Source of the DNA: Eledone cirrhosa
Lineage: Eukaryota
Direction of reading: 5' to 3'
Length of the DNA: 64,000 nt
Assembly (NCBI GenBank): GCA_964016885.1
Contig: OZ024751.1
Coordinates: 46,748,001-46,812,000, forward strand
Shown here: positions 6,794 to 61,875 of the stretch, one piece after another
How the letters are laid out: each line of letters begins with the position of its first letter
Position numbering within the stretch: position 1 is the stretch's first letter
The notes under the pieces: generated by a model
Told to the model about the DNA's origin: nothing
Database searches by the model: none
The model's input: the letters and a program-made list of their open reading frames with translations, nothing else
Made by a program: the position numbers and the translations under genes

Positions 6794-6871
6794 TATATAA
6801 ATGTATCTATATATATTTATATATAATAAAATAACAGGAGGCTGGACTTGTGTAAATCCTTGAAAGGTTTA

Positions 6872-6933
6872 TTATACTATGATCATTTCAATGACCGGGT
6901 TCCGTATGAATCCGGTGATATCATCAGTATATA
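6872..6933 (-). ncRNA. Hammerhead ribozyme-like motif (family 2), antisense in CHS intron
   Basis: - strand reads tatata CTGATGA tatcaccgga...cccggtcatt GAAA TGATCA TA gtataat AAA. Core intact, helix III is a palindromic hexamer, stem I register is off by one base. Confidence 0.5.
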
Positions 6934-7380
6934 TAAATAAATATATATAATGTGTATATAAAGTATATATAGTATATATATATTTATATATATATATTAA
7001 ATGTGTATACTTGCTTTCACCCTTAACGGGATCTTCTGAAAAAAAAAATATAATGCATATATATATATATATATTTAAAATAAACACACGTTTCGGGTAA
7101 TGAGATTTCACCTTTCAGTAAATGTTTCATCTATATAGTGTCTTCATATGTTATGAAGGGATCTCATATGTGTATATGTGTATATATGTATGTGTATGTG
7201 TATATATGTATATGTATGTATATGTATGCGTGTATTTGTGTGTAGAAGGATAATATTTTTATGAATGGGTAGTCACGTATCTGTGTTGGTCCTGTTACAC
7301 TTGGTGTAACTTAATTGGTGGCCTTTACAAACAGTGTGATATGTGATCCGAAAAGTCGAGAAAGCACGTACAACAGCTTG

Positions 7381-13026: not shown

Positions 13027-13078
13027 ATCAGTGAGTGCAACACAACAAAAGTGTGCCAACTGATATACATATATATAA

Positions 13079-13261
13079 AAGAAAGTTAATGAAATATATC
13101 CATACAGATTTAAGTGTGCCTTAAGATATATCAAAGCAAAACTAGAGACGATCTGCACTGAATTATGTAATGTTACATTCAGTGCAGATTGTCTCTAGTT
13201 TTGCTTTGATATATCTTAATGCACACTTAAGTATGTATGGATATATTATATTAACTTTCTT
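13079..13261. repeat. Fold-back inverted repeat, arms about 85 bp
   Basis: aagaaagttaat...gatctgcactgaat / attcagtgcagatt...attaactttctt, with a loop of about 13 bp and several mismatches. Confidence 0.9.
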
Positions 13262-13372
13262 ATAATGAATAAGGCTCGATTTTATTGCCTGAATTCTATT
13301 TTGAGCTGTTTTTTTGAGAAAAAACATATGTTTGATTTTATATCATTCATGATATCCTTTACTTTGAATGTA

Positions 13373-16230: not shown

Positions 16231-16231
<1 letters not shown>

Positions 16232-16403
16232 ATATCAATAATATTAATAAATGGAAAATATCTTTATAAAACGATATTTTATATATAAAGATATTTTCCA
16301 TTTATTAATATTATTGATATTAATGATACTCTGGATTAAAACTGTTGAGTGCTTCTAATCTGTTGTAAAATTAACTTTGTTGAACAATCAACAAACCAAA
16401 TAA
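16231..16403 (+). mobile_element. Truncated copy of hammerhead fold-back family 1 (short hairpin plus tail)
   Basis: Palindrome 16231-16321 (aatatcaataatattaataaatggaaa.../...tttccatttattaatattattgatatt), followed by a tail homologous to 58794-58876 (tgttgagtgctt...caacaaa). Confidence 0.75.
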
Positions 16404-16409
16404 CTCATT

Positions 16410-16540
<131 letters not shown>

Positions 16541-16546
16541 CAGAGG

Positions 16547-16613
16547 CCCTTGAAATATGTATAATAAAATAAATATGGTTTCATAAATATAGTTTCCATT
16601 TATTAATATATTG
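16547..16613 (+). mobile_element. Fragment of family 1 (3' half of the hammerhead)
   Basis: cccttGAAA TATGTA TA ataaaata aatatggtttcataaatatagtttccattt, nearly identical to 58724-58790. Confidence 0.8.
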
Positions 16614-16650
16614 TATATATATATATATACACATATATATATATATATAT

Positions 16651-17830: not shown

Positions 17831-17966
17831 GCAGAAAATACGTATATCTTGGCTCTTGACGGAGATGTAGACTTCAAACCTGGGGCTGTACAATTATTGG
17901 TGGACAGAATGAAGAAAAGCAAGAAAGTAGGGGCCGCTTGCGGTAGAATCCATCCTTCCGGTTCTG
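17831..17966 (+). CDS. CHS: Chitin synthase exon (DxD motif)
   Basis: ttctag|GCA GAA AAT...TCT G|gtcag. Encodes AENTYILALDGDVDFKPGAVQLLVDRMKKSKKVGAACGRIHPSGS. Confidence 0.95.
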
Positions 17967-18033
17967 GTCAGTTCAATCTCTTATCATTTCTTTATAATTT
18001 CAGTCTTTGTTTATTGTTCTTGTTCAACATGGC

Positions 18034-18140
<107 letters not shown>

Positions 18141-18149
18141 TATATATAC

Positions 18150-18928
18150 TCGTTTACTCTTTTACCCGTTCCAGCCATCCGGCTGAGGCCATGCTGGGGC
18201 ACCACCCTTGTTGCTACACATTCTATTTCCAGCATGTGTTAGCTGGCCATTGGTGTAAGAGAGAGATCGTTGCTGCTGCCCTTAGGTACCTTCGTACAGT
18301 GCTGTGGCCACCTGGGTAGCAGGGTGTCAAGATGTTTCTTGAAAACATTCACGTCCACACCATGCAGATCTCTCAAATTTCTTGGCTGCTTTGAACCCCA
18401 GGCTATTGCAATATCTGCTCCTTATTCTAGATGTGAAAGACGGGACCCTATGGCACCATAGAGTAACGTTATGTTCGACGGTTGGTCCAGCTCTCAATGC
18501 CAAAGTTTGGTGCTAGTCCTCAAGGATTTTCCATATGTATATCACTGTGTATCTCTCCCGTCTTCGTTCCAAGTAGTAGAGTTTCAGTTCTTTTAGCCTC
18601 TCCCAGTAGCTCATCTCCTTCATCGGGTCAATCCTCTTGGTATAGCTTCGTTGGATTGCCTCAAGCTCTGTGGTTAGTTTGATACAATGGGGTGATCAAG
18701 GGTGGAAGCAGTAGTCCAGGCTGCTTAGGACAAATGTCCTCCATAGTATCAACATGGTCTCTCGGACTCTTGTCCGGAAAGTCCTCAAGATCTAACCAGC
18801 GAGTCGTCTGCACATTGCTGCCACCCTCATGATGTGTAAATAAAAAGATGCATCATCCCTCATGTCTATCCCCAGGTCTCGTATCGATTTCGACACGGGG
18901 ATTTCGATCCTTCCTGGTCCGGTGTAGT
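18150..18928 (-). mobile_element. CR1/L2-group LINE, degenerate 3' ORF2 fragment
   Basis: - strand reads RDLGIDMRDDASFYLHIMRVAAMCRRLAG*ILRTFRTR...MLILWRTFVLSSLDYC, typical of the post-RT region. Contains stops and frameshifts. Confidence 0.75.
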
Positions 18929-19045
18929 TTGCTTAAACTTTAATCTGTTATTTTAATAAATATTTGCTCTAAGGTTCTTATATATTTGATATATATTTAT
19001 CCTTATCGAGCCTCTTTGGATTTTAGTCTTCACATTTATTATTAT

Positions 19046-19135
<90 letters not shown>

Positions 19136-19227
19136 AGCCTACTTGTTTGTTAATTAAATATGTGACCAACACATCCCTTTATATTTAAAATTTTTATCTA
19201 TTTTATTATTTATATATATTTATCTAG

Positions 19228-19428
19228 GACCCATTGTATGGTATCAGATCTTCGAATATGCCATTGGCCATTGGCTCCAAAAGGCAGCCGAACATATGCT
19301 TGGTTGTGTTCTTTGCAGTCCTGGATGTTTCAGTTTGTTCCGAGGATCTGCTCTTATGGACGATAACGTCATGCGAACCTACGCCACCCGCTCAACCGTA
19401 GCCAGACACTATCTTCAATATGATCAAG
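19228..19428 (+). CDS. CHS: Chitin synthase exon
   Basis: atctag|GA CCC ATT...CAA G|gtatg. Encodes (G)PIVWYQIFEYAIGHWLQKAAEHMLGCVLCSPGCFSLFRGSALMDDNVMRTYATRSTVARHYLQYDQ(G), with the QxFEY and CSPGCFSLFR motifs. Confidence 0.97.
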
Positions 19429-19462
19429 GTATGTACGTTATATGTTTACTATTGCTGCTACT

Positions 19463-20100
19463 AAGGCGGCGAATTGTCAGAGTTGTTAGAACGTCAGATA
19501 GAATGAGTTGCCGTATTCATTTCCGTTCTCTGTTCTCTGAGTTCAAATCCCGCCGAGGTCAAATTTGTCTTTCATCCATTGAAGGTCAATAAAAAAAGTA
19601 CCAGTCAATAATGAGGTCGATTCTTCCTCTATATCTCTTTCATACTTCCATTCTCTTTATCTCTATCCTTCTCTGTGAAGGTACATGGCTGAGTGGTTAG
19701 AGAATTGGATTCACAATCTTGAGGCTGTAAGTTCGATTCCTGGACCGGGTGGTGCGTTATGTCCTTGAGCAAGACACTTTATTTCACTTTGCTCCTTCTA
19801 CCTGGAGTTGCGACCAATAGATAGTACTAGCAACTGGAAAGACCGACGAAAACATTGTTTCCTCGGTCCGATTTGACGAAAGTCGATCGATTCTTTTTTC
19901 TCTGGAAGAAATCTGCTGTATTCAGACCTGGAGAGAGATGGGCTTCGCCTGGTGCTCTCTTTTTATTGATATTTGTAAATATTCTATTATTGTTAAACCT
20001 ACAATATCTTGGGTCCTTGTGGCAAATAAATGTGAATCATCATTATCATAAGGACAAATGGAAGGGGAATTATTTTTGATTTTTGAAATATTTAATTTCT
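19463..20100 (+). mobile_element. Composite SINE block (A-related SINE + SINE B + about 200 bp tail), copy 1
   Basis: Colinear and highly similar to 45776-46630. Confidence 0.85.
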
Positions 20101-20311
20101 ATCATTCTCTGAAAGAAATCTGCTGTATTCAGACATGGAAAGGTTTGGGCTTCGTCAGGTTTAATAAATGCCCTAGAAACACCGTATACTAATACGGCGC
20201 CACTAGGAGTTAGGGGACCATGTATGCATGCATTGCTGCTACTGCTACTGCTACTGCTATTATTTGTTGTTTTCCTTATACTGTTGGCATTTTTGCAGCT
20301 TGGTGGTTAGG

Positions 20312-23300
20312 GGATATGTATATATACATGTATATATGTGTGTGTATATATGTATGAATGGATGGATATGTATATATACATGTATATATGTGTGTATATA
20401 TGTATGAATGGATGGATATGTATATATACATGTATATATGTGTGTGTATATATGTATGAATGGATGGATATGTATATATACATGTATATATGTGTGTGTA
20501 TATATGTATGAATGGATGGATATGTATATATACATGTATATATGTGTGTGTATATATGTGTGTGTATATATGTATGAATGGATGGATATGTATATATACA
20601 TGTATATATGTGTGTGTATATATGTATGAATGGATGGATATGTATATATACATGTATATATGTGTGTGTATATATGTATGAATGGATGGATATGTATATA
20701 TACATGTATATATGTGTGTGTATATATGTATGAATGGATGGATATGTATATATACATGTATATATGTGTGTGTATATATGTATGAATGGATGGATATGTA
20801 TATATACATGTATATATGTGTGTGTATATATGTATGAATGGATGGATATGTATATATACATGTATATATGTGTGTGTATATATGTGTGTGTATATATGTA
20901 TGAATGGATGGATATGTATATATACATGTATATATGTGTGTGTATATATGTATGAATGGATGGATATGTATATATACATGTATATATGTGTGTGTATATA
21001 TGTATGAATGGATGGATATGTATATATACATTGTATATATGTGTGTGTATATATGTATGAATGGATGGATATGTATATATACATGTATATATGTGTGTGT
21101 ATATATGTATGAATGGATGGATATGTATATATACATTGTATATATGTGTGTGTATATATGTATGAATGGATGGATATGTATATATACATGTAGATATGTG
21201 TGTGTATATATGTGTGTGTATATATGTATGAATGGATGGATATGTATATATACATTGTATATATGTGTGTGTATATATGTATGAATGGATGGATATGTAT
21301 ATATACATGTATATATGTGTGTGTATATATGTGTGTGTATATATGTATGAATGGATGGATATGTATATATACATTGTATATATGTGTGTGTATATATGTA
21401 TGAATGGATGGATATGTATATATACATGTAGATATGTGTGTGTATATATGTGTGTGTATATATGTATGAATGGATGGATATGTATATATACATTGTATAT
21501 ATGTGTGTGTATATATGTATGAATGGATGGATATGTTTATATACATGTATATATGTGTGTGTATATATGTGTGTGTATATATGTATGAATGGATGGATAT
21601 GTATATATACATTGTATATATGTGTGTGTATATATGTATGAATGGATGGATATGTATATATACATGTATATATGTGTGTGTATATATGTATGAATGGATG
21701 GATATGTATATATACATTGTATATATGTGTGTGTATATATGTATGAATGGATGGATATGTATATATACATGTATATATGTGTGTGTATATATGTATGAAT
21801 GGATGGATATGTTTATATACATGTATATATGTGTGTGTATATATGTATGAATGGATGGATATGTATATATACATGTATATATGTGTGTGTATATATGTAT
21901 GAATGGATGGATATGTATATATACATGTATATGTGTGTGTATATATGTATGAATGGATGGATATGTATATATACATTGTATATATGTGTGTGTATATATG
22001 TATGAATGGATGGATATGTATATATACATGTATATATATGTGTGTATATATGTATGAATGGATGGATATGTATATATACATGTATATATGTGTGTGTATA
22101 TATGTATGAATGGATGGATATGTTTATATACATGTATATATGTGTGTGTATATATGTGTGTGTATATATGTATGAATGGATGGATATGTATATATACATT
22201 GTATATATGTGTGTGTATATATGTATGAATGGATGGATATGTATATATACATGTATATATGTGTGTGTATATATGTATGAATGGATGGATATGTTTATAT
22301 ACATGTATATGTGTGTGTATATATGTATGAATGGATGGATATGTATATATACATTGTATATATGTGTGTGTATATATGTATGAATGGATGGATATGTATA
22401 TATACATTGTATATATGTGTGTGTATATATGTATGAATGGATGGATATGTATATATACATGTATATATGTGTGTGTATATATGTATGAATGGATGGATAT
22501 GTATATATACATTGTATATATGTGTGTGTATATATGTATGAATGGATGGATATGTTTATATACATGTATATATGTGTGTGTATATATGTATGAATGGATG
22601 GATATGTATATATACATGTATATATGTGTGTGTATATATGTATGAATGGATGGATATGTTTATATACATGTATATATGTGTGTGTATATATGTATGAATG
22701 GATGGATATGTATATATACATGTATATATGTGTGTGTATATATGTATGAATGGATGGATATGTATATATACATGTATATATGTGTGTGTATATATGTATG
22801 AATGGATGCATATGTATATATACATGTATATATATGTGTGTATATATGTATGAATGGATGGATATGTATATATACATGTATATATGTGTGTGTATATATG
22901 TATGTGTATATATGTATGAATGGATGGATATGTATATATACATGTATATATGTGTGTGTATATATGTATGAATGGATGGATATGTATATATACATTGTAT
23001 ATATGTGTGTGTATATATGTATGAATGGATGGATATGTATATATACATGTATATATGTGTGTGTATATATGTGTGTGTATATATGTATGAATGGATGGAT
23101 ATGTATATATACATGTATATATGTGTGTGTATATGTGTATGAATGGATGGATATGTTTATATACATGTATATATGTGTGTGTATATATGTATGAATGGAT
23201 GGATATGTATATATACATGTATATATGTGTGTGTATATGTGTATGAATGGATGGATATGTTTATATACATGTATATATGTGTGTGTATATATGTATGAAT

Positions 23301-25749
23301 GGATGGATATGTATATATACATGTATATATGTGTGTGTATATATGTATGAATGGATGGATATGTATATATACATGTATATATGTGTGTGTATATATGTAT
23401 GAATGGATGGATATGTATATATACATTGTATATATGTGTGTGTATATATGTATGAATGGATGGATATGTTTATATACATGTATATATGTGTGTGTATATA
23501 TGTATGAATGGATGGATATGTATATATACATGTATATATGTGTGTGTATATATATATGAATGGATGGATATGTATATATACATGTATATATGTGTGTGTA
23601 TATATGTATGAATGGATGGATATGTATATATACATTGTATATATGTGTGTGTATATATGTATGAATGGATGGATATGTATATATACATGTATATATGTGT
23701 GTGTATATATGTGTGTGTATATATGTATGAATGGATGGATATGTATATATACATTGTATATATGTATGTGTATATATGTATGAATGGATGGATATGTATA
23801 TATACATGTATATATGTGTGTGTATATATGTATGAATGGATGGATATGTATATATACATGTATATATGTGTGTGTATATATGTATGAATGGATGGATATG
23901 TATATATACATGTATATATGTGTGTGTATATATATGTATGAATGGATGGATATGTATATATACATGTATATATGTGTGTGTATATATATGTATGAATGGA
24001 TGGATATGTATATATACATGTATATATGTGTGTGTATATATGTATGAATGGATGGATATGTATATATACATGTATATATGTGTGTGTATATATGTATGAA
24101 TGGATGGATATGTATATATACATGTATATATGTGTGTGTATATATGTATGAATGGATGGATATGTATATATACATGTGTATATGTGTGTGTATATATATG
24201 TATGAATGGATGGATATGTATATATACATGTATATATGTGTGTGTATATATGTATGAATGGATGGATATGTATATATACATGTATATATGTGTGTGTATA
24301 TATGTATGAATGGATGGATATGTATATATACATGTATATATGTGTGTGTATATATGTATGAATGGATGGATATGTATATATACATGTATATATGTGTGTG
24401 TATATATGTATGAATGGATGGATATGTATATATACATGTATATATGTGTGTGTATATATGTATGAATGGATGGATATGTATATATACATTGTATATATGT
24501 GTGTGTATATATGTATGAATGGATGGATATGTATATATACATTGTATATATGTGTGTGTATATATGTATGAATGGATGGATATGTATATATACATGTATA
24601 TATGTGTGTGTATATATGTATGAATGGATGGATATGTATATATACATTGTATATATGTGTGTGTATATATGTATGAATGGATGGATATGTATATATACAT
24701 GTATATATGTGTGTGTATATATGTATGAATGGATGGATATGTATATATACATGTATATATGTGTGTGTATATATGTATGAATGGATGGATATGTATATAT
24801 ACATGTATATATGTGTGTGTATATATGTATGAATGGATGGATATGTATATATACATGTATATATGTGTGTGTATATATGTATGAATGGATGGATATGTAT
24901 ATATACATGTATATATGTGTGTGTATATATGTATGAATGGATGGATATGTTTATATACATGTATATATGTGTGTGTATATATGTATGAATGGATGGATAT
25001 GTTTATATACATGTATATATGTGTGTGTATATATGTGTGTGTATATATGTATGAATGGATGGATATGTATATATACATGTATATATGTGTGTGTATATAT
25101 GTGTGTGTATATATGTATGAATGGATGGATATGTATATATACATGTATATATGTGTGTGTATATATGTATGAATGGATGGATATGTATATATACATTGTA
25201 TATATGTGTGTGTATATATGTATGAATGGATGGATATGTATATATACATGTATATATGTGTGTGTATATATGTGTGTGTATATATGTATGAATGGATGGA
25301 TATGTATATATACATGTATATATGTGTGTGTATATATGTATGAATGGATGGATATGTATATATACATGTATATATGTGTGTGTATATATGTATGAATGGA
25401 TGGATATGTATATATACATGTATATATGTGTGTGTATATATGTATGAATGGATGGATATGTATATATACATGTATATATGTGTGTGTATATATGTATGAA
25501 TGGATGGATATGTTTATATACATGTATATATGTGTGTGTATATATGTATGAATGGATGGATATGTTTATATACATGTATATATGTGTGTGTATATATGTG
25601 TGTGTATATATGTATGAATGGATGGATATGTATATATACATGTATATATGTGTGTGTATATATGTGTGTGTATATATGTATGAATGGATGGATATGTATA
25701 TATACATGTATATATGTGTGTGTATATATGTATGCATGGATGGATATGT
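20312..25749. repeat. 52-bp minisatellite, about 5.4 kb
   Basis: Unit GGATATGTATATATACATGTATATATGTGTGTGTATATATGTATGAATGGAT, about 100 copies with 53- and 66-bp variants. Lies in the last CHS intron. Confidence 0.98.
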
Positions 25750-25847
25750 AAGTCCTTACGCTGTCGCAAAGGCGCCGTAATAACATATATGTTAGTAGTA
25801 GTAGTAGAAGATATATTTTTGATTTTCTCTATTATTTTTCTTATCAG

Positions 25848-27922
25848 GTGAGGATCGATGGTTGAGTACTTTACTCCTGCAACAGGGTTACCGTGTTGAG
25901 TACTGTGCCGCTTCAGACGCCATGACCCAAACTCCGGAAGGATTCAAAGAGTTCTTCAATCAACGTCGTCGTTGGATTCCTTCGACACTAGCCAACATCA
26001 TGGATCTTCTACAGAGCTATCGAACCACAGTGAAAATGAACGATAATATTTCTTATCTCTACATCGCCTATCAAGCTTCACTCATGCTTTCCACAACGTT
26101 AGGACCTGCAACCGTTTTGTTGATGATGGCTGGTGCCTTCAACGCTGTGTTAAAAACCAGTTTATGGCAGTCCTACTTATTAGCCGTGGGGCCAGCTGTC
26201 ATCTATCTCATCCTTTGTTTCATTCTAAAGAGCGAACACCAAGTAACAATTGCCGCCATTCAGAGCGCCATTTATGCTCTCTTTATGATGTCTGTGATAG
26301 TTGGAACTATGGTTCAAATTGTTGAAGATTCACTAATCAGTCCCAACGCTATATTCTTTTTCATGTTGCTAGCGATATTTACGATATCGGCGTGTTTTCA
26401 CCCTCAAGAGTTCTTATGTTTGCTACCTGGTGCTCTTTACTTCCTTTGTATTCCATCTGGTTACGTGCTCCTCATCATATATGCCATGTGCAATATGCAT
26501 GTCGTCTCCTGGGGAACGAGAGAAAAAGCAGTGCAGCCAAGCAGCGGTCCCGAAGATGAAAAGGGAAAAGTGTCACGGAACAACAGTTTCATGAAATGGC
26601 TTGGTCGTAAAGAGGAGGAAGATTCTTGTTGTCCGTGTATCACTGGTTTCTTTCGACGTTTATGCGGTTGCCGTTCCCATGCGGACATGAGCAACGAGAT
26701 CCTCCGGCAGGTGATGGAGAAACTAGACAAAGTGGAAGCTGGAATTAAAATGACTAGTACAAGTTCAAACATCGGTCACACCCGTCGACGCAGGTCGTCA
26801 TCGCGGTCTCGTCGTTCAAATATTGGAAATATTGAAGAAGCAAATATAGAAAATGACGACAGTGATGTTGATACGAGCAGCACTGAAAACGATATAGATT
26901 TGGACGAAATTAGGGATCCTTTTGTGAACCCACTTTGGCTTGAAGACCAGGAAATGGGTAACGGAGAAATTCAATACCTGCCTGGGAGAGAGGTGGAGTT
27001 TTGGCAACAATGTATCGCGAAATATTTGGCACCAATACCTTTCGATAAAAATCATCATATACAAATGTCAACGGATCTCAGATCGATGCGAAACAATGTC
27101 GCTTTTGCTTTCTTCATGTTAAACGCCTTTTGGATGATAATAATATTCATGCTTCAAAGTGTCAAAGAGAAAATCAGCGTACCAATTCCAAGACCAGACG
27201 CCGAACCGTTGTTGATCGAACCACTTGGCTTGATTTTCCTTGTATTCTTTGCTTTCATCCTCATCCTGCAGTTCGGTGCCATGTTACGGCATCGATACGG
27301 AACACTTCTTCACATTTTGGCATCGACGGAAATTCGATGTTGTCGAAAACGATTCGATCCGAAGAAACATATTGAAGAAGCTGTTGAATACGCGAGAGTT
27401 CTCCAGCGTCTCTACGGAATTGACGATGACACGGATCAAGATTTGGATTTCTCCATTTCCCAAGACACTAGAGTAGTCCGACCAGGTAACAATGCCATTA
27501 ACAGTTTACCAATGTTGACAAGCAGTCCAGCGGCGGGTGGTTGTGACTCCACACGAACAACCATTACATTGATGTCTAGTCTAGAGAAATCTATGCCACA
27601 GGCATTCGACAACATCAACTGTCGCAAAGAAGATATGAGGTCGAGTTACTCGGAGATGTCTGACACGAAAGAAGTAGAAGTAGCAAAGTTGCCGCCTTCT
27701 AGAAGGGCACCACACAGACATAAAGGTAGACACACAGGTAAAAACAGTACTCTGAGACGGGCGTTCGTTCGCAGATACACGAAACTAATGAGAGAACAGA
27801 CTTCACAGAGCTTGTCAGCGGCAACGGGTGGTCGAGAGACCAGACCAAGCCATCCGTCAATATTACCAGCCAAAGACAGCGGTGATGAATACATTCCACA
27901 ATTCAATCAACTGAACAGATGA
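25848..27922 (+). CDS. CHS: Chitin synthase terminal coding exon (GEDR, QRRRW, TM cluster, SWGTRE, C-terminal tail)
   Basis: ttatcag|GT GAG GAT CGA TGG gives (G)[14 protein letters not shown]. Contains QRRRW, several hydrophobic helices, VSWGTRE and [19 protein letters not shown]. Open for 2075 bp to the TGA ending at 27922. Confidence 0.97.
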
Positions 27923-31184: not shown

Positions 31185-31404
31185 CATTTATATATACATC
31201 TATATATTCATTGATGTTTGGTGCTTCACCGTTTGATAGAACCGGTCATTCCTTATAGTTAACCATGATATAATAGTGGGAAAAAGCACACGACGTTATG
31301 CAACTCATACATCTTTGATGTTGAATCCTGTTGTTGGTCCGGAAATGGTGTTAATTGTTATTGAATAAAATAACAGGAGGTCGTACTTCAAAGTTTTATT
31401 TCTG

Positions 31405-31468
31405 CAAAGACTATATATATTTCAGTGACCAGGTTACGTAAAATCATGGCGACATCATCAGGTGTATA
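31405..31468 (-). ncRNA. Hammerhead-like motif (family 2), degenerate
   Basis: - strand reads acac CTGATGA tgtcgcca...tggtcact GAAA TATATA TA gtc. Shares the flank aaataacaggagg with the 6872 copy. Stem I is weak. Confidence 0.42.
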
Positions 31469-31654
31469 TTTCATAATAGTTATTTGATAAAGGAATAATG
31501 GTAAACATAATCCTAGAGGCTACAAAATGAGACATATAAATCTATATCTATATAAAATATATTATAAAATAATATACATATATTATATTTCATTTTATAT
31601 TTAATTATATATATAATATAATATGATATAATATAATATAATATAATATAATAT

Positions 31655-33593: not shown

Positions 33594-34071
33594 TGTTATA
33601 CTTGGGGAGAGTCATATTTGTGTAATATTGCCAGAATTAATAACAGAACACACTTAGTGTTTGGTTGGTTTTCGCTTTTCGCCTCTGTGTCTTTTATATC
33701 GGTAATCTAATTTATTCGGTCCTCAATGTTGCCATTGACTGACCAACGGTCAACAATAATACAGATACAATATTGACACAATCACATAGAAAATGCAATG
33801 CAACGGGGGGAAACAATAGCACCACTGACGGTGTTTCAGATGTGCAACGAAAGAACTTTGATAAACTATATATATGTGTTTGTGTCTATATTGTATCTGT
33901 ATTATTTTTGACCGTTGGTCGGGCAATGGCAACATTGAGGACCGAATAAATTAGATTACCGATATAAAAGACACAGAAGCGAAAAGCGAAAACCAACCAA
34001 ACAGTGAGTGTGTTCTGTTATTAATTCTGGCAATATTACACAAATATGACTCTTCCCAAGTATAACAATAT
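33590..34071. mobile_element. Fold-back element, arms about 198 bp, spacer about 85 bp
   Basis: tattgttatacttggggagagtcatatttg... / ...caaatatgactcttcccaagtataacaata. Lies between (TA)n tracts and has a one-sided tail of about 55 bp. Confidence 0.85.
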
Positions 34072-34369
34072 TTGTTTCGACACACGATTTCATATCAAAA
34101 ACCTCGCAAAACTAATTCATCGCCATTATATATATATATATATATATATATACCTAATACTAATACTTTGTACTGCACTCTTTGTTATTGTTTTTGTTTT
34201 TTGTTTTAACTTATATATATATATATATATATAAGCAAAAGGGATATTTAATTTGTTGGTAATTCAACAAATATATATGTTTATAACTGATTCGAAGCAC
34301 TCGACTGGTTTTCTGGAGTATAATATCAATGATATTAATAAATGGAAACTATATTTATAAAACTATATT

Positions 34370-34430
34370 TATTCTATTATATATATTTCAAGGGTACCAA
34401 AAGTTTGGTACGCTCTCATCAGATAAAATA
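34370..34430 (-). ncRNA. Minimal type-I hammerhead ribozyme
   Basis: tattttat CTGATGA gagcgtacc aaactttt ggtaccctt GAAA TATATA TA atagaata. Stems I and II pair and the core is intact. Confidence 0.72.
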
Positions 34431-34798
34431 CAAAGTTTGTTTTATAAATATTGACATATCCAGGAAGGAGATCTTAACGGTTCAAGTTTTTCCTGGATAG
34501 TAAAGGAAAGAAGGGAAAGAGAGGAAAAGTCAAATATTTCAAGTTATTAAGATGAATATGCAAATGAGCTTCTTCCTACACATACATATATATATCCTAA
34601 TAATTATTTTAATCTACCTAGCGTCTAAAAATAACGTTTTTTTCAGCCCTATACCTCAACCTCATTTGCATATTCATCTTAATAATTTGAAATATTTTAC
34701 CTTTCTTCTCTTTCCCTTCTTTCCTTTACTATCCAGGAAAAACTTGAACCGTTAAGATCTCCTTCCTGGATATGTCAATATTTATAAAACAAACTTTG

Positions 34799-34858
34799 TA
34801 TTTTATCTGATGAGTGCATACCAAAGTTTTGTACCCTTGAAATATATATAATAGAATA
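34799..34858 (+). ncRNA. Minimal type-I hammerhead ribozyme (mirror arm)
   Basis: tattttat CTGATGA gtgcatacc aaagtttt gtaccctt GAAA TATATA TA atagaata. Stem II partly decayed. Confidence 0.6.
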
Positions 34859-34901
34859 AATATGGTTTTATAAATATAGTTTCCATTTATTAATATCATT
34901 G

Positions 34902-34933
<32 letters not shown>

Positions 34934-36767: not shown

Positions 36768-37107
36768 CAATATCGGAGAAACCTTTTTAGCGATACTCCG
36801 GCCAAATTCCAACTCACCCAACAAACATTAGAAAATAAGTGATTATATTCCCAATTATGTGTTCGGGGTGCTAACTAAAAGTATTGCGTGGAAAATTGGC
36901 TGTATTATTTCATATGAGACATATCTAATATATCTCCTCCCAGACGGACGTCTCGTTTCATTATAGGACTCCTACAATTTGGGTGAAAACATACCAGTTT
37001 ATGTAGGAGCTTGTATAGCATCAATAGATATATATTCAAGTGGGCTACTATAATTCATCAGTGGGTGCCCCAATTATACTAATATTGATAATCTAACCAA
37101 CGTCAGC

Positions 37108-49777: not shown

Positions 49778-50148
49778 TCTCCCTCTTTCTCTCTCTTTCT
49801 CTCTCTCTATATATATATACACGTATACACGTAAGAGGTGGAACTCGTCAGATCCGATCAATTGGTCTTTCCAATTGCAGATACTATCTTCCAGTCGTAA
49901 CTACTGACAGAAATATATATATATATATATATATTGCTTTTAAAAACAGCTGGTGATATGCATGTAAGTAAATATTCTCTTTATCTGATATTTTGTAACT
50001 AACCTTACATAGATCAATAACGGAGTATAGCTACAATGTATTATCATCATCTAGAAACGATCGTAGAGCAGTGAAGTATATCTCTAATGGCTTGATTTTT
50101 TATTTCATTGTTTTAACTTATATATATATATTTATATATATATATAAA

Positions 50149-50216
<68 letters not shown>

Positions 50217-50263
50217 ATAATAATAAATGTGAAGACTAAAATCAATAAGGGTAATATACATAC

Positions 50264-50303
<40 letters not shown>

Positions 50304-50455
50304 TTAACCGTAGAGCAAAACCGTGTTTCAGAAGATCCGTTAAGGGTGAAAGCAGTGATTCTTTGCTTAAACTTTAAAACTTTAATCTGTTATTTTAATA
50401 TATATATATATATATATAATATATAAGAACAAAAGATGGTTAAAAGAGTTCCATG

Positions 50456-50526
50456 TATTTTATTATGCGCATTTCAAAAACAAATATCATCATGCAATAA
50501 TATTTGTGTTTTCATCAGATAAAACA
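50456..50526 (-). ncRNA. Minimal type-I hammerhead ribozyme (left arm)
   Basis: Reverse complement of the 50680 motif, core intact. Confidence 0.72.
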
Positions 50527-50679
50527 GGAGAACATGATATGAAGGCTAAAAAACACTTGTGGATAGTGCAGTTTTAAATCAACATATCAACATATGTTGA
50601 TTTAATCAACATATCAACATATGTTGATTTAAAACTGCACTATCCACAAGTGTTTTTTAGCCTTCATATCATGTTCTCC

Positions 50680-50750
50680 TGTTTTATCTGATGAAAACAC
50701 AAATATTATTGCATGATGATGTTTGTTTTTGAAATGCGCATAATAAAATA
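50680..50750 (+). ncRNA. Minimal type-I hammerhead ribozyme
   Basis: tgttttat CTGATGA aaacacaaatattatt...gatgatgtttgttttt GAAA TGCGCA TA ataaaata. Confidence 0.75.
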
Positions 50751-50871
50751 CATGGAACTCCTTTAACCTTCTTTTGATCTTATATTATGTATACTCCAGT
50801 CCTACAAATTGTAGAGTGCTTCTTATCCGATATCTGCATTGCTTTATTGTACTACAATAAAACCCACCTCC

Positions 50872-50952
<81 letters not shown>

Positions 50953-51008
50953 TGAGAATGTAAGTGTGCTTGTATGTATGTATGTATGTATGTATGTATG
51001 TATGTATG

Positions 51009-51036
<28 letters not shown>

Positions 51037-51040
<4 letters not shown>

Positions 51041-51572
51041 CTGGCAACCCCACCAAGGTTTCTTGGTGAGGAGGGTGACTTTGGACATCCTGCAGGACTA
51101 AAAACAAAACCTGTCAAAGGGCAAGGGAGCTCTTAAGACTCAATAGCCATCCAAAATCACCGGGAGAGATGACCCCTTAGCCTTTGTCAAGGCAGAATTC
51201 TAGGAGAAGGAAAACTCTGATATAACACCTGCAACCCCGATGGTATCCAATGATGTTGACTTGTTCTTCTTTTTGGTAAATATCATCTTGATTAAGAGAG
51301 TGGGACTGGCTTTGTGCAGTGCCTTTGCTCACTATAAAAGCTTCACAGCACAGGCATTGCTTTATATCTGGAGATCTTTCTGCACTTGTCGTCACATGGT
51401 ACCATGTGCCCTGCACTATGTGTCAATAATGGTCACAAGTGTAGTCTTTGTACCAGAGTTTTCAAGTCGCTGGCTGGACTAAAAAGTCACATTCGTTCAG
51501 CGCATCGGTAGGGGTTCTCCTTCATGGATATAAAGTAGTGGCCGTACTCGAAAACGAGTTGGCAGCCACCAT
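51037..51572 (+). mobile_element. Non-autonomous RTE-like retroelement, copy 1 (5'-truncated)
   Basis: Close paralog of 52462-53002. Ends GAGTTGGCAGCCACC(ATGT)n. Confidence 0.7.
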
Positions 51573-52389: not shown

Positions 52390-53002
52390 TCTGGTCACCA
52401 GTTGGTGCTACTGGTAACATGTATCCCAGTACAACCTGTCCCATGGTCGGGTCGTTGGCGACTAAACTGGCAACCCCACCAAGGTTTCTTGGTGAGGAGG
52501 GTGACTTTGGACATCCTGCAGGACTAAAAACAAAACCTGTCAAAGGGCAAAGGAGCTCTTTAGAGTCAATGGCCATCCCAAATCACTGGGAGAGATGACC
52601 CCTTAGCCTTTGTCAAGGCAGAATTCTAGGAGAAGGAAAACTCTGATATAACACCTGCAACCCTGATGGTATCCAATGATGTTGACTTGTTCTTCTTTTT
52701 GGTAAATATTATCTTGGTTAAGAGAGTGGGACTGGCTTTGTGCAGTGCCTTTGCTCACTATAAAAGCTTCACGGCACAGGCATTGCTTTATATCTGGAGA
52801 TCTCCCTGCACTTGTCGTCACATGGTACCATGGGCCCAGCACTATGTGTGTCAATAATTGTCACAAGTGTAGTGTTTGTACCAGAGTTTTCAAGTCACTG
52901 GCTGGACTAAAAAGTCACACTTGTTTAGCGCATCGGTAGGGGTTCTCCTACATGGATATAAAGTGGTGGCCGTACTCGAAAACGAGTTGGCAGCCACCAT
53001 GT
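52390..53002 (+). mobile_element. Non-autonomous RTE-like retroelement, copy 2
   Basis: 5'UTR-like part joined to a terminal C2H2 finger remnant [17 protein letters not shown] and an (ATGT)n tail. Clade assignment is inferred. Confidence 0.7.
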
Positions 53003-57400: not shown

Positions 57401-58466
57401 GTTGCTACCACCACCGCCGCCATCACCACCACCACCACCACCACCACCACAACAACAACAACAACAACCACAAAGCTCACCGCCTCCACTAGCATCATCA
57501 CTAACCCCACCGCCACTGCCACTACCACACCCAACGCCGCCGCCGCCGCCACCACCGCCGCCAACAACAACAACACCTCTACCACCACCACCACCACCAG
57601 CACCACCGCCGCCACCGCCACCACCACCACCACCACCACCACCACCGCCGCCGCCGCCGCCATACACAACCACCACCACCAACACCACCCACCATCACCA
57701 CCACCAACACCACCCACCATCACCACCACCACCACCACCGCCGCCACCATACACAACCACCACCACCAACACCATCCACCATCACCACCACCGCCGCCAC
57801 CGTACACAACCACCACCACCAACACCATCACCACCACCGCCGCCACCGTACACAACCACAACCACCAACACCACCACCATCACCACCACCATCACCACCA
57901 CCACCACCACCACCGCCACCACCGCCACAATAACCACCATTACTGTAATTACTGCAATAAAGCTTAGAAATTACAACCATTGGTTTGCGAAGTTAATATG
58001 TCGAGTGGAGATGACACGTGATCTGTATGGTGGCTTTAGATAGCACACGTGACCACTGTTAGTATTTGAGGTGATTGTTAGAGAGGGGGGTGAAGAATAG
58101 GGCATGTGGAGTAGAGATTTGAAGTAGGTGGTGATGGTGTTGGTGGCGGAGGTAGAGGTGATGGTGGTGTTGATAGCGTTGTGATGGCAGCGGTGGTGGT
58201 GGTGTTGTGTTGGGGTTGGTGATTGTTGTATGCGTTGTGATGGTAGTGGTGGTGGCGTTGTCATGTTGGGGTTGGTGGTAGTATAAACATATACATACAA
58301 ATATACATACATACACTCACTCACTGACTCACGTATAACACACACACACACACATACACACACACACACACACACACATACAAACACACACACACACACA
58401 TATATATATATATTTATATATATACAATATATTATCAAATGGAAACTATATTTATAAAACCATATT

Positions 58467-58532
58467 TATTTCATTATACATATTTCAAGGAGCACCAACG
58501 CAAATTATGGTGCGCTTTCATCAGATAAAATA
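58467..58532 (-). ncRNA. Minimal type-I hammerhead ribozyme (left arm)
   Basis: tattttat CTGATGA aagcgcacca...tggtgctcctt GAAA TATGTA TA atgaaata. Confidence 0.68.
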
Positions 58533-58680
58533 TAATATAGGTTAGTTTTATAAATAAATATTGACATACCCTGAAAAAATGCAACCATTCTAATAACTCC
58601 ACTATCCAGGAGATTCCAACCAGAATGGTTGCATTCTTTAAGGGTATGTCAATATTTATTTATAAAACTGATCTAAATTA

Positions 58681-58746
58681 TATTTTATCTGATGAAAGCA
58701 CACCATAATTTGCCTTGGTGGCTCTTGAAATATGTATAATGAAATA
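58681..58746 (+). ncRNA. Minimal type-I hammerhead ribozyme
   Basis: tattttat CTGATGA aagcacacca...tggtggctctt GAAA TATGTA TA atgaaata, followed by AATAAA. Confidence 0.68.
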
Positions 58747-58876
58747 AATATGGTTTTATAAATATAGTTTCCATTTGTTAATATATTGTATATTTACTCC
58801 AATAATTTGTTGAGTGCTTTATATCAGTTATAAAAATATTTTGCTGTTGTATCCCAACAAATTAAATATAACCTCT

Positions 58877-58972
<96 letters not shown>

Positions 58973-59248
58973 GTATATACATATATATCCAAGGATTACA
59001 TCAACAGAGGTTCGACGAGCTTTTGATTCCAGAGTTGGGCCAGATCGATACATATCGAACCCATGAGCTGATCAATAGCGAAACGCGCGTCACTAGTCAA
59101 TAAACGAAATGAAGGACTAGCGTCCGAAATGTTAAGACCATCTTCCTGTTATATCAAGCGTTAACCTAATATATTCCTTCCATATACTGTACCGATTGTG
59201 TTGTTATTTCTGTTTACGTTTTACATATATATATATATATATATATAT

Positions 59249-59642
<394 letters not shown>

Positions 59643-61339: not shown

Positions 61340-61875
61340 TAATTGTTTCTACTTTTGGTACAAGGCCAGCAATTACCACCAGTGTATTACTGGTACTTTG
61401 TTTTATCGACCCCGTAAGGATGAAAGGCAAAGTTAACCTCGGCGGGATTTGAACTCAGACAGTAAAGGGACATAACTATGCTGAAAAGCATGGTGTCCGA
61501 CCATCTACCGATACTGCCAATCCCCCAATGAAATATAACTATATCGTATTATCTCCGGTGGATTAGCAGTATCGGTAGAGGGTCGGATGCCATACTTTGC
61601 AGCAAAGAGTTACGTCCATTTATGGTCAGAGTTCAAATCCCGCCGAAGTTAACTTTGCCTTTCATCCTTACGGAGTCGATAAAATAAAGTACCAGTAATA
61701 CACTGAGATAATTGCTGGCCTTGTGCCAAATATAGAAACAATTATCTCCTAAAGACAAAACATAAAAAAAAAAAGAAATGTGGTGTGTATATTTTATCCT
61801 TGCGGGGTCGATAAAATAAAGTACCAGTAATGCACTGAAATAATTGTTGGCCTTGTGCCAAAAATAGAAACAATT
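61340..61875. mobile_element. Cluster of SINE A copies: - (61340-61525), + (61556-61740), + 3' fragment (61795-61872)
   Basis: Head-to-head pair about 30 bp apart. ATTATCTCC flanks the + copy (possible TSD). Confidence 0.88.

Follow-up and report, generated by a model that had tools for sequence, protein, structure and literature searches.

The locus lies in a 64-kb window, which is the whole stretch of DNA that was analysed. It consists of head-to-head copies of one ~256-nt repeat between (TA)n tracts, and each arm carries a hammerhead motif. The features are as follows:

50398..50420, no strand: (TA)n left flank, likely a remnant of the target
50421..50587, minus strand: inverted tail-less copy, a pLTR-like arm with its 5' end at the centre; reverse complement of 50619-50785
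50456..50526, minus strand: left-arm type I hammerhead motif, with core CTGATGA at 50518-50512 and hexamer at 50471-50466
50577..50603, plus strand: centre unit 1, which together with A50576 forms a 12-bp hairpin with a 4-nt loop; 8-nt direct duplication at 50578-50595
50604..50630, plus strand: centre unit 2, an exact direct copy of unit 1 (27 nt), with AA microhomology (2 nt) at the boundary
50619..50874, plus strand: family-length copy (~256 nt) with 5' end, hammerhead and 3' tail, delimited by a collapse of contig depth and a cluster of joints
50680..50750, plus strand: right-arm type I hammerhead motif, composed of stem I (50680-87), core (50688-94), helix II region (50695-50730, 12-bp stem), GAAA (50731-34), TGCGCA (50735-40), TA (50741-42) and stem I' (50743-50)
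50786..50874, plus strand: one-sided 3' tail of 89 nt, defined by alignment with the tails of family 1 and by folds
50875..50946, no strand: (TA)n right flank, likely a remnant of the target

The arms (50421-50587 and 50619-50785) are reverse complements of each other with 4 mismatches in 167 bp. Three of the four mismatches (50429, 50437 and 50445) are exactly 8 nt apart within the outer 25 nt, probably by chance. The 3' tail has no mirror image at the left arm. The earlier note had placed the end of the element at 50787, but the tail continues to 50874 and aligns with the tails of a related group of insertions in the window, family 1:

58417-58882 and 34236-34910: tailed fold-backs with hammerheads
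16231-16416: tiny tailed fold-back without a core
59249-59520: solo tailed copy
16542-16623: fragment beginning at the foot of helix II

The tail has motifs in common with this family (TACTCCA...GAGTGCTT) and ends in an 8-bp hairpin; its hairpins were no more stable than those of shuffled sequences (z -0.7 to -1.3). A 30-codon open frame from 50787 was considered as a conserved ORF start and rejected, as it is not kept in family 1 when judged by eye. The three fold-backs of family 1 (58417-58882, 34236-34910 and 16231-16416) also have a one-sided tail. TA runs of 14–30 nt were found on both sides of all five such inserts, in a window that is TA-rich overall. Since both flanks of the studied element are (TA)n, no target-site duplication is readable. 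The element sits in a TA run behind the end of another short repeat (about 50286-50398).

Hammerhead motifs and their helix III hexamers

On both strands of the locus, the parts of a type I hammerhead (C3-U-G-A-N-G-A9, GAAA and UH) occur in order with helix I closing. Each strand has an 8-bp stem I (with one G.U pair), CTGATGA, a long helix II, GAAA, TGCGCA, TA and stem I'. The claim that this geometry is identical to that of family 1 holds for the layout but not for the helix II region, which is 36 nt here and 25–31 nt in family 1. In a single-arm transcript, the pair tested in the 12-bp helix II stem had a probability of 0.98. Helix II lacks G10.1-C11.1 at its base, where A...T is present instead (50680-50750/50526-50456), which makes the A/U at this position a natural variant. 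In 10 of 10 window copies a T directly precedes GAAA, and the base that follows the core is variable.

Rfam gave 0 matches at the gathering score in the 64-kb window, and no hammerhead family was among its 63 matches in 49800-51000 at E values up to 10. Its output at the locus consisted of sub-threshold miRNA-hairpin matches, which any long inverted repeat would give. We also trained a covariance model on the window copies; at E < 0.01 it recovered, in the window, the 10 training copies and a truncated copy (16531-16573) and nothing more. Thirteen CTGATGA sites in the window are followed by a TGAA-like box, and 11 of them have a self-complementary hexamer, including one in a degenerate motif at 37061. 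The two sites that lack such a hexamer (46670 and 5871) were unmatched by the window-trained model.

All 10 complete motifs, which belong to 7 insertions, have a self-complementary hexamer (8 strict, 2 with G.U). Five hexamers occur among them: TGCGCA, TATATA, TATGTA (G.U), TACGTA and TGATCA. As background, self-complementary hexamers were present in 10 of 134 GAAA-N6-TH sites that lack an upstream core, and, with the outer T and A fixed, in 3 of 11. TGCGCA had been regarded as the best covariation evidence in the window; TGATCA (core 6927, minus strand) is equally good, as all four of its inner positions differ from TATATA, and TACGTA (2902, minus strand) differs from TATATA at two inner positions. 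In the helix III alignment, 40 of 40 cells pair, and both inner pairs have changed on both sides. The covariation score of the whole structure was 0.438 versus 0.192 when shuffled and at most 0.270 when slid, but it is not a probability, as the rows were hand-picked and the two arms of one fold-back are not independent. The 8-bp intermolecular duplex for TGCGCA has a predicted energy of -10.5 kcal/mol versus +4.7 kcal/mol for the monomer loop. These data support a conserved palindromic helix III in the hammerheads of the window, and the occurrence of five distinct ones within 64 kb speaks for selection, in the source elements, on the pairing of helix III between molecules.

Outside the window, a degenerate hammerhead pattern and two family-specific 23-mers had no matches in viral or prokaryote genome contigs. 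Thirteen metagenome loci that matched the pattern were rejected as relatives: 11 hold microbial-looking ORFs of at least 120 aa, and none of the 13 has a fold-back or a long TA run. They were used solely as a chance control, in which 3 of 13 hits had palindromic hexamers.

Further hammerhead motifs of other subfamilies were found on the minus strand at 2854-2912 (TACGTA), 6868-6937 (TGATCA) and 31402-31471 (TATATA). Stem I is damaged in the latter two, which have a common downstream motif. In addition, GAAA-CGATCG-TA at 50054-50065 and GAAA-CGCGCG-TC at 59080-59091 (both plus strand), whose 5' core is decayed, are probably what is left of further hammerhead families that had palindromic hexamers.

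The family in public contigs and cleavage at the locus

Parts of the stretch were present in 20 of the 24 public runs listed, the best of which contained 0.71–0.84 of the sampled words. We aligned to the stretch 4263 contig pieces from run X1 (which may be the source sample and would then not be independent), 492 from X7 (same organism, other sample) and 38 from X4 (a second organism). In X1, the summed depth, which is not a copy number, was 1e5–1.5e6 along the arms and fell to 5.8e3 in bin 50597-50612; in X7 and X4 it was zero there. The family to which the sequence belongs is of very high copy number, and the collapse of depth just upstream marks its 5' end sharply, near 50619. Joints in the contigs cluster at 50618-50623 / 50584-50588. 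Among the 15 joints listed (of 89), 12 had one side at element positions 0–5, and the partners of these 12 began anywhere from position 1 to 220.

Within the TGCGCA family, one hexamer variant was present among the 40 variant rows listed (of 51), a CpG-type change at 50468 that breaks the middle pair and accounts for 1.2% of the depth in X1 and 7% in X4. Loose ends in X7 revealed a related subfamily with C before GAAA and an identical hexamer. Contigs that continue before 50618 had a common upstream extension (10 contigs in X1 and one 215-nt loose end in X4), which may represent a longer parent element.

At the locus itself, the two hammerhead motifs lie on opposite strands. A transcript of the fold-back therefore never contains two sense copies, and no pairing into a dimer is available in cis. 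The nearest other plus-strand motif is 8 kb away, at 58689. The full fold-back transcript forms one hairpin of about -280 kcal/mol in which the test pairs of stems I and II have a probability of 0.0, and a transcript of one arm alone still gives the tested stem I pair a probability of just 0.03. The hammerhead at the locus is thus predicted to be buried in the long hairpin and inert.

The plus-strand hammerhead is predicted to cleave after 50742, which corresponds to element position 124/125, and none of the 15 joints listed (of 89) was at this site. Six of the listed breakpoints were at element positions 109–116 (50727-50734), the 3' foot of helix II, which is 8–15 nt upstream of the predicted cut site and is an expected stalling place for a reverse transcriptase (RT). 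The partial copy at 16542 begins at the same foot. In the accessible text on an anole Penelope-like element (PLE), hammerhead cleavage was dispensable in vitro (PMC11167929).

The absence of listed joints at the cut site bears on another candidate origin, in which the repeat would be one monomer of a non-LTR retrozyme whose self-cleaved RNA circulates in circular form; we regard this as very unlikely. Its length of about 256 nt, low GC content and type I hammerhead fit this class: in the parts of the sources available (PMC7229834; bioRxiv 10.64898/2026.07.22.740005), animal non-LTR retrozymes are non-coding, fall in a 150–450 nt class, carry type I hammerheads and share a proposed PLE origin. 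In contrast to what these sources describe, the locus has no head-to-tail repeat or tandem array, and its ends are away from the cleavage site.

The doubled centre

The two arms are separated by a doubled hairpin unit. Two tandem copies of a self-complementary unit had been reported here, and the copies are indeed exact (50577-50603 and 50604-50630, 27 nt each), but the 27-mer itself is neither self-complementary nor a palindrome; together with the A before it, it forms a 12-bp stem with a 4-nt loop. Each 27-nt unit contains an 8-nt direct duplication, and the two units are direct rather than inverted repeats. The centre folds far more stably than shuffled sequences (z about -10 to -12). A model in which two hairpin-tipped templates were joined head to head was excluded, as both units share one loop on one strand; this same loop on the same strand points to a single 27-nt slippage duplication, aided by the hairpin and the 2-nt microhomology. 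This duplication would date from the insertion or from later replication.

We compared centre junctions between contig copies of the family. Most were simple, with a loop of 0–3 nt and no doubling. For example, some were perfect palindromes (loose ends at 50613, 14 contigs), and others had 6 letters fewer at 50586 (4 contigs) or 3 letters fewer at 50588 (4 contigs). Doubled centres were rare but recurring: X1 had a depth of 517 across 50606, single contigs were shorter there by 2 or 7 letters, and an 85-nt contig piece crossed the centre with 14 gaps, all three showing variant doubled centres. In addition, one X1 contig had an insert of 12 nt at the joint in which the end of the arm (50575-50586) was copied again, exactly and in direct orientation. 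Centre variants with 2 or 5 additional nt were rejected as re-copies, because they are equally well explained as plain joins of two arms, and the re-copy cases counted are the 8-nt, 27-nt and 12-nt ones.

The earlier note had regarded the doubled centre as a footprint of snap-back priming or template switching that created the inverted arm. Snap-back would be consistent with unit 1, and a join of two separately primed cDNAs suits it just as well; the doubling is not needed to produce the arm, because simple palindromic centres are the common form in the family. Additional slippage at the junction is the better reading of the doubling, making it a by-product and not the event that made the arm.

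The 55-nt doubled centre might instead be an artefact of the assembly or of long reads at the strong hairpin, with a single-centred true allele. None of the listed short-read contig pieces spans the exact centre, and even the best runs contained 0.71–0.84 of the sampled words, but the depth across 50606 and the variant doubled centres in the contigs of X1, a separate sequencing run unless it is the source sample, make such an error unlikely. The fold-back as a whole is not a read chimera, as its arms differ at 4 sites and its flanks are not inverted.

The variability of the junctions also bears on a MITE-like DNA transposon with long terminal inverted repeats and a TA target that moves as a unit. 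Long inverted arms, TA flanks, high copy number and frequent simple palindromic centres are features of the family that agree with such a transposon. However, the tail is one-sided and lies outside the inverted repeat, a solo tailed copy is present at 59249-59520, centres and arm lengths vary, and a hammerhead is carried as cargo. This explanation is largely refuted by the variable junctions, and we consider it extremely unlikely.

Origin of the head-to-head insertion

The locus is very probably the non-coding end (pLTR plus tail) of an endonuclease-bearing (EN+) PLE, inserted head to head and copied in trans by the RT of that element. Membership is assigned on the basis of architecture, no parent ORF having been found: neither an RT nor a GIY-YIG match was detected at the locus or, in the window, in 121 of 210 filtered open segments and one chitin synthase exon. 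In the available parts of two studies (Arkhipova et al. 2013, PMC3846280; Craig et al. 2021, PMC8557442), a typical EN+ PLE insertion has an inverted 5'-truncated copy joined head to head with a junction palindrome, a one-sided tail, variable 5' truncation of the partner and a simple AT-rich target. Each of these features was observed here, including an inverted copy that adjoins the 5' end and TA runs beside all five inserts. Unlike the insertions described there, the locus has no ORF, its tail is 89 nt versus the reported 30–40 nt, many copies of the family reach one sharp 5' end, and direct junction duplications of 8 and 27 nt are present.

The minimal, dimeric hammerheads of metazoan PLEs, as far as described in the text available (Cervera and de la Pena 2014, PMC4209133), have CUGAUGA, GAAA and UH, a long helix II, a palindromic helix III and loop 3, dual motifs on opposite strands 100–700 bp apart, and many families per genome, all in likeness to the motifs described here; palindromic 15.2-16.2 and loop 3 were found in 10 of 10 window copies. 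The motifs here differ from that description in the 6-nt palindromic insert (an 8-bp duplex with A15.1/U16.1), the 8-bp helix I, the lack of G10.1-C11.1 (A/U) and the U before GAAA in all 10 window copies.

Insertion could have proceeded as follows. The PLE protein would nick a (TA)n target, and cDNA synthesis would begin inside the RNA at one of two sites, giving tailed and tail-less ends; two internal RT start sites that define the PLE tail, and AT-rich targets, have been described in the accessible text of PMC11167929. The cDNA would extend to the 5' end of the RNA and finish in the self-complementary 4-mer ATAT. This end might then reverse direction, either by folding back on itself or by pairing with a second cDNA whose priming took place on the other target strand, which would produce the inverted arm. 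At the turn, the polymerase would slip twice, yielding first the 8-nt re-copy and then the hairpin-assisted 27-nt duplication, at insertion or later. The hammerhead would be inherited pLTR cargo, and the palindromic helix III may have been kept since the hammerhead would work only when two sense copies in the source transcript form a dimer.

The turn itself could have occurred in two ways. According to the first, which is possible but somewhat doubtful, one cDNA snapped back at its 5' end and copied itself, the centre being the result of repeated zig-zag snap-back. After the 8-nt re-copy, the strand would end in ATAT-4 nt-ATAT, a usable fold-back primer, and the differences between the arms have the appearance of private mutations acquired later (the left-arm letter accounts for nearly all contig depth at 50769). 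Palindromes at inverted PLE junctions have also been read as evidence of self-priming (PMC3846280, in the part available). However, the predicted primer alone (50576-50595) is unfolded (0 kcal/mol), many centres in the family have loops of 0–1 nt, which are too tight for a simple snap-back, and an identical 4-nt loop twice on one strand is more simply one tandem duplication. According to the second, which falls just short of probable, two cDNAs primed by nicks on both target strands, and started at the two RT start sites, joined via self-complementary or microhomologous 3' ends, and the doubling arose by slippage during or after the join. Such a join explains why the 3' ends face outward, why the tail is on one side, how palindromes with no loop arise and why partners are truncated at many different positions; a PLE protein also nicks and extends both target strands in vitro and is a predicted dimer (PMC11167929, accessible text). 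On the other hand, no contig piece is long enough to cover the two arms of a single insertion, and the two templates are inferred. Loops of 0–1 nt favour the joining of two cDNAs, and the 4-nt loop at this locus fits either route.

The ribozyme type, palindromic helix III, opposite-strand pair, fold-back and self-priming idea have all been published. Openly available papers turned up neither a description of the family nor one of re-copied termini at PLE junctions; Repbase, subscription papers and supplements may contain one. On its own, the locus is ordinary retroelement debris. Its family is of more use, as a sharply defined 5' end together with numerous independent fold-back junctions provides a natural data set for the inverted-copy step of PLEs.

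A bolder and rather improbable extension of the PLE origin is that the family is a self-propagating, SINE-like parasite of PLEs with a fixed ATAT 5' end, whose telomerase-related RT re-copied the last 8–27 bases before joining. If so, a telomerase-like repeat-addition step would be recorded in the genome, and thousands of junctions at one position would allow counting to settle between snap-back and two cDNAs.

Fold-backs without a hammerhead were also present in the window. They are formed by three unrelated repeats (33594-34067, 61340-61744 and 13076-13264), one of which (33594-34067) has a one-sided extension before a TA run. They show that inversion is common among the repeats of this genome, and part of the fold-back tendency may be general to it. 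The window is animal DNA and rich in microsatellites. It also contains chitin synthase exons (17831-27922, plus strand), including a 699-codon open stretch at 25823-27922 (Pfam Chitin_synth_2). Another repeat is present twice, at 51030-51540 and about 52400-52940, and in each copy a short frame (51338-51508 and 52706-52936) weakly matches a C2H2 zinc finger.
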